Below are positions 1 to 7,032 of a DNA stretch of 32,000 nucleotides, piece after piece. The notes below the pieces were generated by a model. The model worked only from the letters and a program-made list of their open reading frames with translations, was not told where the DNA came from and did not search any database. This DNA is from Geotalea daltonii FRC-32 (GTDB lineage Bacteria > Desulfobacterota > Desulfuromonadia > Geobacterales > Geobacteraceae): the NCBI RefSeq assembly GCF_000022265.1, contig NC_011979.1, forward strand, positions 720,001 to 752,000, in the 5' to 3' direction. The translations under genes and the position numbers were made by a program. Each line of letters starts with the position of its first letter. Position 1 is the first letter of the stretch.

Positions 1-735
1 GTCCATTTTGGTCATGTCCCATTTGCGGTCGAATACCTTGCGGTTAACGGCCATGGCTGCATTGAAGTCGATCCTGTTCCCCTCGAAAGTCCGGCTGCCG
101 TGGTGATGGATGAAGACGTCGCCGGCGATGACCGACTGCAGCCCGGCCAGGGAGGCGCGCAGGCAGAAATCGTCGTCCTCGAAGTTGCCCAGGGCAAAGG
201 CTTCATCCAGCATCCCCACCTGGTCCGCCAGGCTGCGGCGGAAGAGCATGCAGAAACCGACCACCAGCTTGACCGGGATGCGCCGGTGACGATGGGCGGA
301 GCGGAAACCGGCGGCGAAGGCTTGCATTTCGTCCATGTTTGCATAGGGGACCGACAGCAGTTGCTGGGGACCGGCTATGTTGTTGGTCATGGGAGCGACG
401 ATGCCGTCGGCGGAGGCTTCGAGACATTCCCGCATCCCGGTAAGCCATCCCTCCGTCACCACCACGTCGTTGTTGAGTAAAAGCAGGTATTCACCCTTGG
501 CGGCAGCCATGCCCTGGTTGCACCCCTTGGCGAAGCCCAGGTTCTTCTTGTTCTCGATAAGCCTGTAGTTTTTGTGGCTTTTCATTTCCTGGCGAAGCCA
601 TTTGACCGTGCCATCCTTGGAACCATTGTCGACGAAGATTATCTCGTGTTTTTCCGGCGTATGTTTCTGGATGCTTGACAGGCACTCACGGGTGTATTCC
701 AGCTGATTCAAGGTGAGGATGATGATGGAGGTTAA
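1..735 (-). other. Domain of the giant ORF: GT2 glycosyltransferase, copy C (truncated by the window edge)
   Basis: [46 protein letters not shown] ... [18 protein letters not shown] ... [10 protein letters not shown] ... [12 protein letters not shown] ... [10 protein letters not shown]. Confidence 0.85.
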
Positions 736-6700: not shown

Positions 6701-7032
6701 TTGCCGAAGTATTCCCTGGAGCTTTCGGCGAAGTCGTAACCGTTGGCAAAAAAGGAATAGAGGCTTTCCCTCGAAATGGTCAGGTCGTTGCCGTGCTGGT
6801 CGGTGATGTTCAGGCCTGTCAGCTGCTGCTCATAGGCAAGAGTGACCATGGACTGATGAATTTCGTTCTCGCTGTTTCGATAGTCGAAGCAGAGGTGATA
6901 GGTGCCCTTGTAGGTAGGGGAGACAAAGCAGTTGATGATTTCTGCATGGTCATCAATTAAGACGGGAACGCTGGTGCTGGAACCCCCCGATCGCTTTGGC
7001 ATGTAAATTTGGTAATTTTTATCCATGCACAT
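1..7032 (-). CDS. Giant multidomain glycosyltransferase / methyltransferase / TPR fusion protein. The start is in the window and the 3' end lies beyond the left edge (at least 2344 codons).
   Basis: Absent from the ORF track because this frame has no stop codon in the window. I hand-translated the minus strand in the frame whose codon-top coordinates are multiples of 3. It is open and protein-like at every stretch checked (7032-5100, 5100-4320, 4320-3780, 3660-3300, 2310-2040, 1560-721, 735-1). ATG at 7032 follows an in-frame TAA (7041-7039) and an AAGGA. None of the listed minus-strand ORFs between 1 and 7045 lies in this frame. Motifs: [18 protein letters not shown] (GT4); SILVPSYNQ...[10 protein letters not shown] and [12 protein letters not shown] (GT2); [12 protein letters not shown] and [15 protein letters not shown] (SAM motif I). 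Confidence 0.9.
   Translation of the reverse strand, partial: [2344 protein letters not shown]
960..1470 (-). other. Domain of the giant ORF: class I SAM-dependent methyltransferase, copy B
   Basis: [31 protein letters not shown] ... [17 protein letters not shown] ... [45 protein letters not shown]. This pattern is typical of Methyltransf_11/23-type domains fused to glycosyltransferases. Confidence 0.8.
1560..2175 (-). other. Domain of the giant ORF: GT2-like (GT-A fold) domain, copy B
   Basis: [46 protein letters not shown] ... [10 protein letters not shown]. It has a GT2-like N-terminal strand-helix and a DxD-like SDPD. It is more divergent than copies A and C. Confidence 0.55.
2320..3760 (-). 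repeat. TPR region of the giant ORF, built from three tandem super-repeats of about 160 aa
   Basis: The block [21 protein letters not shown]....[23 protein letters not shown]..C......DD...FFTRA.E.EPWN recurs three times. Its Tyr codons top out at 3594, 3108 and 2631, giving periods of 486 and 477 nt, both in frame. Confidence 0.85.
3790..4380 (-). other. Domain of the giant ORF: class I SAM-dependent methyltransferase, copy A
   Basis: [37 protein letters not shown] ... [16 protein letters not shown] ... [11 protein letters not shown]. Motif I (GxGxG-like), the acidic residue after beta-2, and motif IV/V spacing are all present. Confidence 0.75.
4925..5545 (-). other. Domain of the giant ORF: GT2 (GT-A fold) glycosyltransferase, copy A
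   Basis: [93 protein letters not shown]. This shows the typical GT2 N-terminal signature with a DD(D)-type motif. Boundaries are approximate. Confidence 0.8.
5645..6681 (-). other. Domain of the giant ORF: GT-B fold glycosyltransferase, group 1 (GT4-like)
   Basis: Translation reads [33 protein letters not shown] ... [51 protein letters not shown]. This is the classic E-x7-E region of group 1 glycosyltransferases. Boundaries are approximate. Confidence 0.8.

Follow-up and report, generated by a model that had tools for sequence, protein, structure and literature searches.

Reading frame of the giant gene

The stretch of DNA considered here, the window, comprises 32,000 nucleotides (nt) of Geotalea daltonii FRC-32 (contig NC_011979.1, positions 720,001–752,000, forward strand), and all coordinates of its features are counted within it. 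At its left edge, on the minus strand, lies the 5' part of a giant gene whose product combines several glycosyltransferase (GT) and methyltransferase (MT) domains with an array of tetratricopeptide repeats (TPR). It is preceded on the same strand by a gene for a separate TPR protein and by a sugar-tailoring operon (Table 1).

Translation of the minus-strand frame from 7032 to 1 gives 2,344 codons without a single stop, which bears out the uninterrupted reading first described from the sequence, whereas the five other frames of this region contain 12–90 stops each, plus-strand frame 0 having only 12. Given the base composition of the same stretch, a stop-free run of this length would arise by chance with a probability of ~10^-35.5. 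The GC content at codon positions 1, 2 and 3 is 0.63, 0.38 and 0.73, a coding signature like that of the adjacent genes. An in-frame stop lies two codons 5' of ATG 7032, which makes this ATG the earliest possible start, with Met3 and Met11 as alternatives. An AAAGGA motif is found 5' of the ATG, and 13 nt separate it from the end of the preceding gene.

Over 1–7032 the program that lists open reading frames (ORFs) reports only short minus-strand ORFs and long plus-strand shadow ORFs, the same picture as in the first reading of the sequence. This program omits ORFs that run off the source sequence, and the giant is missing from its track because the frame runs off the window edge, just as had been supposed from the lack of a stop inside the window. 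The case is a practical reminder that genes at window edges drop out of ORF tracks.

Table 1. Domains of the giant and other features of the window, with the basis of each assignment (aa, amino acids; AF2, AlphaFold model; pLDDT, predicted local distance difference test; SAM, S-adenosylmethionine; the query is the G. daltonii giant)
Feature	Position	Strand	Basis
Giant multi-domain glycosyltransferase gene, 5' part, 2,344 codons	1..7032	minus	Stop-free frame; 3' end beyond position 1
N-domain, aa 31–112, five strands and two helices	6697..6942	minus	Family conservation from query aa ~30; AF2 pLDDT 87.6
GT4 (GT-B fold, retaining-type), aa ~118–465	5638..6681	minus	Glyco_trans_1_4, Glycos_transf_1, EX7E E374–E382
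GT2-A (GT-A fold), aa ~498–705	4918..5541	minus	Glycos_transf_2; VVNDGSTD and SSDD motifs
Family-specific helical tail after GT2-A, aa 707–867	4432..4914	minus	Conserved in alignment A1; helical in AF2 model
MT-1, class I SAM methyltransferase, aa ~911–1075	3808..4302	minus	Pfam matches; motif I VIGCGYG
TPR array, three tandem ~160-aa modules	2278..3729 (3247–3729, 2758–3243, 2278–2760)	minus	TPR families
GT2-B, aa ~1622–1845	1498..2169	minus	Glycos_transf_2; VVDNHS and SDPD motifs
MT-2, class I SAM methyltransferase, aa 1864–2023	964..1443	minus	Methyltransf_23; motif I LDVGCAAG
GT2-C, aa ~2100–2320	73..735	minus	Glycos_transf_2; VDNGS and LNND motifs
TPR protein, 469 aa, directly upstream of the giant	7046..8455	minus	TPR_8, TPR_16; stop 13 nt before the giant's ATG
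Soluble sugar-tailoring operon	8409..26042	minus	Pfam, NCBIfam
Conserved island flank: TPR protein, 391 aa (26222–27397), and O-methyltransferase, 231 aa (27517–28212)	26222..28212	minus	Pfam

Domain anatomy

Pfam was scanned with the whole giant protein and with eight segments of it. Every domain claimed in the sequence-only reading scores above the Pfam gathering cutoff, and the proposed order GT4-GT2-MT-TPR-GT2-MT-GT2 is confirmed. The seven domains counted then are all found by Pfam, but the total was too low, as it did not include the N-domain, the helical tail, the division of the TPR array into three modules and the cut end of the protein. The catalytic motifs (EX7E, the DxD-type motifs and SAM motif I) are intact.

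The N-domain has no Pfam match, and its AF2 model finds no significant counterpart among PDB folds (best E 0.18). The GT4 domain that follows matches Glyco_trans_1_4 (PF13692; 82 bits, 6.6e-23, aa ~290–430) and Glycos_transf_1 (PF00534; 4.8e-20), and a Foldseek fold search pairs it with MshA (2e-16, TMt 0.68). It possesses the C-terminal Glycos_transf_1-type Rossmann domain, the EX7E motif and the GT-B fold of the CAZy GT4 family, and the EX7E motif (E374-x7-E382) is invariant across the family alignment. PF20706, “GT4 in conflict systems”, also gives a match, which scores below the generic GT4 models in an overlapping region, and for this reason no defence role is read from it.

The three GT2 domains in the window are PF00535 (Glycos_transf_2) matches with the nucleotide-binding Asp of CAZy GT2 enzymes, followed by SSDD in GT2-A, SDPD in GT2-B and NND in GT2-C. 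GT2-A scores 115 bits (3.3e-33, aa 500–606) and is related to GalT1 (3e-20) and K4CP (8e-19) in the PDB, and GT2-C scores 101 bits (6.4e-29, aa 2102–2272), with a match that spans 1–167 of the 168 model positions. GT2-B had been called “only GT2-like”; the assignment stands and the reservation can be dropped, as the domain is a real GT2 at 42 bits against a cutoff of 23.3 (9.1e-11, aa 1624–1731).

Both MT domains contain the glycine-rich motif I and have the Pfam matches above cutoff by which class I SAM methyltransferases are recognized. MT-1 matches Methyltransf_25 (44 bits, 3.1e-11, aa 924–1018), Methyltransf_11 (3.1e-10) and CMAS (8.5e-10), and MT-2 matches Methyltransf_23 (66 bits, 4e-18) and the putative methyltransferase of PDB code 3cc8 (2.7e-37). 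The TPR array at aa 1100–1585 is matched by TPR families at up to 140 bits (1.9e-42, aa 1100–1570). Its three modules show 59–61% pairwise identity, no tandem repeat was detected in this region at the DNA level by Tandem Repeats Finder (TRF), and by their sequences the modules are old duplicates.

No transmembrane-like segment is present in the giant (maximum 19-residue hydropathy 1.55). The curated cutoffs of NCBIfam are reached neither by the giant nor by ten proteins of the upstream operon.

The missing 3' end and the Geotalea orthologues

When one genome per species was scanned, Geotalea alone yielded close relatives of the giant. The orthologue from Geotalea toluenoxydans JCM 15764 (L001, 10001–18607) is collinear with query aa 3–2344 at 74–92% identity and contains at least five frame changes. 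Geotalea sp. SG265 (L002) encodes a single intact ORF of 4,032 aa (7028–19126), residues 2639–3365 of which are 82% identical to query residues 1619–2344, comprising GT2-B, MT-2 and GT2-C. The N-terminal ~2,000 aa of the SG265 protein gave no BLASTP match above 100 bits with the first 1,087 aa of the query and contain MT24-type and other MT domains, an unannotated stretch, a GT4, a GT2 and an MT. The 19-kb tailoring operon of the window is absent from the SG265 locus, and gene content points to an island that is mosaic even between close relatives.

Past the residue that corresponds to window position 1, both orthologues run on for ~670–690 aa. In SG265 the extension consists of a TPR region, a fourth GT2 and another TPR region, and is followed by a separate gene for a 207-aa methyltransferase. 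An exact 43-mer taken from the left end of the window did not occur in metagenome contigs, the upstream 469-aa product had no exact match on record, and the position of the true stop is deduced from the two orthologues. Therefore, the full protein of the window is probably ~3,000 aa long with five GT domains and encoded by a gene of ~9 kb, of which the visible frame would be the first ~78%.

The broken orthologue of G. toluenoxydans could be taken to mean that the long frame is not one functional polypeptide, being instead a decaying gene, an assembly chimera or the source of separate products. Such an arrangement has a parallel in two metagenome-assembled genomes (MAGs) of Geobacter (L003, 9899–19046; L007, 9926–19112), where the modules are split, in another order, into three genes for a 479-aa protein with three TPR modules and proteins of 1,153 and 1,379 aa. 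This explanation is highly improbable in view of the 2,344 stop-free codons with coding-type GC bias, the intact ORF of SG265, dozens of intact homologues of 2,000–3,600 aa and the conservation of all catalytic motifs. In addition, three of the G. toluenoxydans frame changes fall at 1-nt deletions that adjoin runs of CCC, GGG or AAA, as expected of sequencing errors at homopolymers, the DNA alignment being noisy (76% identity). The frame changes are thus probably errors of the draft assembly or of sequencing rather than signs of a pseudogene. The domain series in one frame supports the earlier idea of a single-chain glycan assembly line.

A family of giant glycosyltransferases

Public databases contain more than 120 homologues of 1,300–3,664 aa that match the giant at E <= 1e-10, annotated at most as “glycosyltransferase”. 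They come from Geomonas agri (2,494 aa), Rosettibacter firmus (2,112 aa) and Melioribacter, and from MAGs of Sedimentisphaerales, Nitrospirota and Anaerolineales, with metagenomic proteins reaching 3,664 aa. The impression that the giant is not a described protein holds insofar as no characterized member was found, yet more than 120 homologous giants are on record. Sequence and fold searches of the PDB for characterized orthologues returned generic single-domain relatives only, and no multidomain giants of this type were found in the literature searched.

The members share a core of ~830 aa (query aa ~30–870) made of the N-domain, the GT4, GT2-A and the helical tail, with 30–47% identity between the query and dozens of homologues. 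The core is N-terminal in the query and in some members and internal in many others; the GT2, MT and TPR additions vary, and their number and order differ from those of the query. An exhaustive search with a core profile of 871 positions detected the core in many 50%-identity clusters, with top matches of 1,000–1,900 bits, located inside giants, in standalone proteins of ~800–960 aa and, for GT2-A and the tail alone, in proteins of ~375–400 aa. The AlphaFold model of the core (mean pLDDT 82) matches the PDB per domain only, to MshA-type retaining GT-B and to K4CP, SpsA or WrtF-type GT-A structures, and the fold search found no solved structure that spans the entire core (TMq <= 0.33).

A hidden Markov model (HMM) of the TPR module finds three copies in the window giant and two in each of the other Geotalea giants. 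The module is free-standing at L003, L007, L011 and L015 and is joined to a small GT2 in Geomonas. Such fission and fusion across islands fits parts of one working complex.

In the last two rows of alignment A1 (P0022 and P0024), VIVYTGKE and MPSGVFY replace the GT2-A motifs VVNDGSTD and SSDD. The GT2-A domain of these two homologues is probably catalytically dead, with its fold kept.

At L018 (12516–21563), a standalone core of 872 aa is encoded next to a complete nonulosonic-acid set made up of NeuB, two CMP-transferase-like genes, a NeuC-like epimerase, acetyltransferases and a radical-SAM/SPASM enzyme. This arrangement hints that in some lineages the core may handle or extend sialic-acid-like sugars.

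Flagellar genes near the relatives

In SG265 a gene for a 271-aa flagellin (22198–23013; Flagellin_N 2e-16; 27% Ser+Thr) is located 3.1 kb downstream of the giant and adjoins genes for TPR-GT9/GT47 proteins. The flagellin of G. toluenoxydans (25460–26275), 95.6% identical to that of SG265, is encoded ~6.9 kb downstream of the giant, at a locus that also encodes a TPR-GT41 (OGT-like) protein. MT genes are found among both Geotalea neighbourhoods.

Seven distant homologues were located on their contigs by exact look-up, and all seven lie no more than 10 kb from flagellar genes, the distance limit applied. The first locus contains FliD, followed by FlhB/FliR/Q/P/O, MotAB and FliJ; the second has flagellin/FlbT/FlaF upstream and FliK/FlhB downstream, and the third six tandem flagellins with FliS and FliD. 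At the fourth locus (L015), FlbT and two flagellins are present, with flagellins downstream of the giant. FliD and FlhB occur at the fifth, flagellin, FliS and FliD at the sixth, and FlaF with two GT41-TPR proteins at the seventh. In a Nitrospirae locus, the flagellin HMM places a flagellin 4.5 kb from the giant. Altogether, of 13 related loci with sufficient flanking sequence, 10 have flagellar genes within 10 kb. This neighbourhood of the relatives favours a role of the giant in flagellin glycosylation, and the flagellins and flagellar genes beside its orthologues and all seven distant homologues fit the earlier suggestion of OGT-like protein targeting by a TPR-GT protein.

The same neighbourhood might reflect co-regulation only, and the substrate of the giant could be a different protein of the flagellum or the cell surface, or a wide range of targets. 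TPR domains are generic, and the separate TPR-GT41/GT9/GT47 proteins, encoded nearer the flagellin gene, could be the true flagellin transferases. Nevertheless, a substrate other than flagellin is improbable: the cited literature names no other glycoprotein for such islands, the associated flagellins are rich in Ser and Thr, and no other candidate substrate gene recurs across the distant-homologue loci.

The flagellins encoded next to family members (L001, L002 and L013–L017) are all short, with 271–303 aa, approximately the size of the D0/D1 domains, and contain 18–27% Ser+Thr. It might be that a large glycan takes the place of the outer domains that these flagellins lack.

The upstream operon and the island

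The 469-aa TPR protein directly upstream of the giant has a counterpart with 50% identity directly upstream of the L015 giant, and no promoter-like site was found between its gene and the giant. The sugar-tailoring operon that precedes it encodes an FkbM methyltransferase, two small methyltransferases, a NodU/CmcH-type carbamoyltransferase, a split transketolase, an RmlD-like reductase, a GT9-like protein, a NUDIX-like ORF (16570–16992) and six radical-SAM enzymes, several of which contain SPASM/twitch domains and one of which is a B12-binding enzyme of class B. Two of the operon proteins (9521–10576 and 11935–13323) have no Pfam or NCBIfam match. It is possible that a peptide, and not a sugar, is the substrate of some of the radical-SAM/SPASM enzymes.

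Pfam was scanned with 25 ORFs of the window, the side 3' of the giant lying outside it, and revealed neither a Wzm/Wzt ABC transporter nor an enzyme of lipid-linked initiation. In the run of 21 genes on one strand that extends from the giant to the O-methyltransferase, Pfam likewise identifies no ABC transporter, no flippase, no polymerase and no initiating transferase, and no convincing membrane segment was found in their products. Because transporter, initiation enzyme and convincing membrane protein are all missing from these genes, the system is better understood as cytoplasmic glycosylation of a protein before its export than as lipid-linked assembly.

This bears on the view that the giant is a polysaccharide assembly line for an O-antigen, capsule or exopolysaccharide, which would assemble its polymer on a lipid carrier along the inner side of the membrane in the manner of WbdA/WbdD or WsaE. 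Methylation would then modify or terminate the chain, and the TPR array would act as a spacer or ruler. The fusion of several GT and MT domains is what such a system would have, and the closest solved relatives of the GT2 domains include polymerases (K4CP chondroitin synthase, heparosan synthase and TarS). The GT4 resembles the mannosyltransferase of methylmannose polysaccharide (7qsg), a GT9-like protein is present in the operon, and some family members lie in clusters of sugar genes where no flagellar gene is visible. WbdA/WbdD of the E. coli O8/O9a polymannose and WsaE of the Geobacillus S-layer glycan similarly combine multiple GT activities with MT activities. These systems use undecaprenol-linked intermediates and need an ABC transporter, and WbdD relies on a kinase as well as a coiled-coil ruler.

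None of these lipid-linked, transporter, ruler and kinase parts was found in the window of the giant. The 21 same-strand genes also lack Wzx/Wzy and an initiating phosphoglycosyl transferase, the giant has no kinase domain by Pfam, and the part that would serve as its spacer consists of TPR modules, not of a coiled coil. Together with the flagellar genes near most of the related loci, this makes a polysaccharide assembly line unlikely. The WbdA/WbdD and WsaE logic of the sequence-only reading is rejected in the absence of transporter, flippase, polymerase, initiation enzyme, kinase, ruler and convincing membrane protein from the window.

Synteny links the right flank of the window, with the 391-aa TPR protein, the O-methyltransferase, DUF3108 and other genes, to the left flank of the SG265 giant. 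In SG265, counterparts of the 391-aa TPR protein and of the O-methyltransferase, 88% and 68% identical, immediately precede the giant. The L015 giant, in turn, is directly preceded by counterparts of ten genes that are consecutive in the window operon. Therefore, by gene order, the locus is a mosaic, with a variable island between conserved flanks. Glycosylation islands are usually variable mosaics.

A plus-strand ORF of 319 aa (16867–17826) has no family match and overlaps the minus-strand gene of a 218-aa methyltransferase (16996–17652), which is 92% identical to an L015 gene; on this comparison the plus-strand ORF is a shadow. The listed minus-strand ORFs overlap by 47 nt at 8409–8455 and by 68 nt at 10509–10576 because the program takes the longest possible start, and the true starts of the gene of the 469-aa TPR protein and of a 351-aa gene are probably further downstream.

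Proposed function

The giant is likely to be the main glycan-building enzyme of a flagellin O-glycosylation island, judged by its domains and by the surroundings of its relatives, and would be a soluble cytoplasmic protein of ~3,000 aa that furnishes the flagellar filament with its coat of sugars. The upstream operon would supply at least one unusual nucleotide sugar. The TPR modules, by analogy with FlmG and Maf-1, may hold unfolded flagellin, or partner proteins bound to flagellin, before export. The retaining-type GT4 and the four inverting-type GT2 domains would then add sugars in turn to Ser/Thr-linked chains, which the two fused MT domains may O-methylate, as proposed for the type B GT2-MT fusion of C. 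difficile. The first sugar might be placed on flagellin by the giant itself, or by the neighbouring GT41/GT9/GT47-TPR proteins with the giant extending it. The earlier description of the chain as “self-contained” is doubtful, since separate TPR proteins, MTs and GT41/GT9/GT47-TPR proteins accompany the giant at related loci.

The combination of TPR and GT is treated in the literature as a signature of flagellin glycosyltransferases (PMC7591256, PMC13317340, bioRxiv 10.1101/2022.03.25.485807). The giant shares with the TPR-containing members of this group the presence of both kinds of domain in one polypeptide, and like them it is soluble and free of lipid-carrier or export machinery. In FlmG, flagellin is bound by the TPR domain and not by the GT domain (PMC7591256), and a swap of the GT domain changes donor specificity (bioRxiv 10.1101/2022.03.25.485807). 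FlmG of Caulobacter crescentus and Brevundimonas resembles the giant, by domain layout, as a soluble cytoplasmic TPR and GT protein. It is encoded together with flagellar genes, and FlaF and FlbT are also present at loci related to the giant. However, FlmG has 596 aa and one GT-B domain and transfers a single nonulosonic acid, whereas the part of the giant inside the window combines a GT4 with three GT2 domains (a fourth GT2 is expected beyond it), two MTs and internal TPR modules.

The TPR of Maf-1 confers acceptor and site specificity, and GT2-TPR proteins have been nominated as flagellin glycosyltransferases (PMC13317340). Maf, among these predicted flagellin glycosyltransferases of Shewanella and Clostridium, has a MAF_flag10 GT-A domain, which is not among the Pfam matches of the giant or its segments. 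The type B GT2 of C. difficile (CDR20291_0242) is a fusion of PF00535 and PF08241 that was proposed to add rhamnoses and methylate them as the O-linked chain grows (PMC5207246). It is similar to the giant in joining GT2 and MT and lies in a flagellin glycosylation locus, but it has one GT, one MT and no TPR and works with separate GT1 and GT3, and the giant is about ten times larger. PA1091 (FgtA) of Pseudomonas aeruginosa PAO1, a GT2 fused to a phosphotransferase (PMC11833859), is likewise a flagellin GT2 joined to a second glycan-modifying activity; it differs from the giant in having these two activities only, with no TPR, GT4 or MT. Flagellar genes are also found around most of the other giants of the family that were located on their contigs.

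Several observations weigh against a role in flagellin glycosylation. No flagellar gene lies within the window and the 3' side of the giant is outside it; the flagellar link comes through synteny and relatives. At the split version of L003 and L007, at L009 (Sedimentisphaerales) and at the standalone core of L018 there is no flagellar gene within 10 kb, and the surroundings of L003, L007 and L018 are occupied instead by sugar genes of the nonulosonic-acid type. Protein binding by TPR arrays is generic, and the GT9 family, represented by the GT9-like protein of the operon, is best known from the synthesis of the lipopolysaccharide (LPS) core. GT2-C has NND in place of the classical DxD, which makes its metal site, read from sequence, less certain. 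In the literature searched, no experimentally studied member of the family was found, nor any measured glycan, flagellin modification or activity.

Significance

Flagellin glycosylation is known mainly in pathogens, where small separate enzymes add one to a few sugars. Islands for flagellin glycosylation have been described before, as have TPR-guided flagellin glycosyltransferases and fusions of GT and MT. A core of ~830 aa with an N-domain, grown into chains of 2,000–4,000 aa with up to five GTs beside radical-SAM-rich sugar operons, was not found described, and no link of Geobacter, or of radical SAM, to flagellin glycosylation or its islands was found in the literature searched.

A more speculative extension, and a doubtful one at present, is that the giants constitute a widespread class of “flagellin glycan megasynthases”. 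In each of them one soluble chain would dock on flagellin by an array of dedicated TPR modules of ~160 aa, after which a long methylated oligo- or polysaccharide would be built from radical-SAM-tailored sugars, domain by domain or processively, and would form the outer surface of filaments made of short flagellins (271–303 aa) with D0/D1 only.

If flagellin is indeed the substrate, environmental bacteria of several phyla (Geobacteraceae, Nitrospirota, Ignavibacteriota, Planctomycetota and others) would use enzymes of 2,000–4,000 aa that fuse docking, up to five glycosyl transfers and methylation. Isolates of Geotalea and Geomonas can be cultivated and would offer a tractable entry to substrate channelling, new sugar chemistry and the surfaces of short flagellins.

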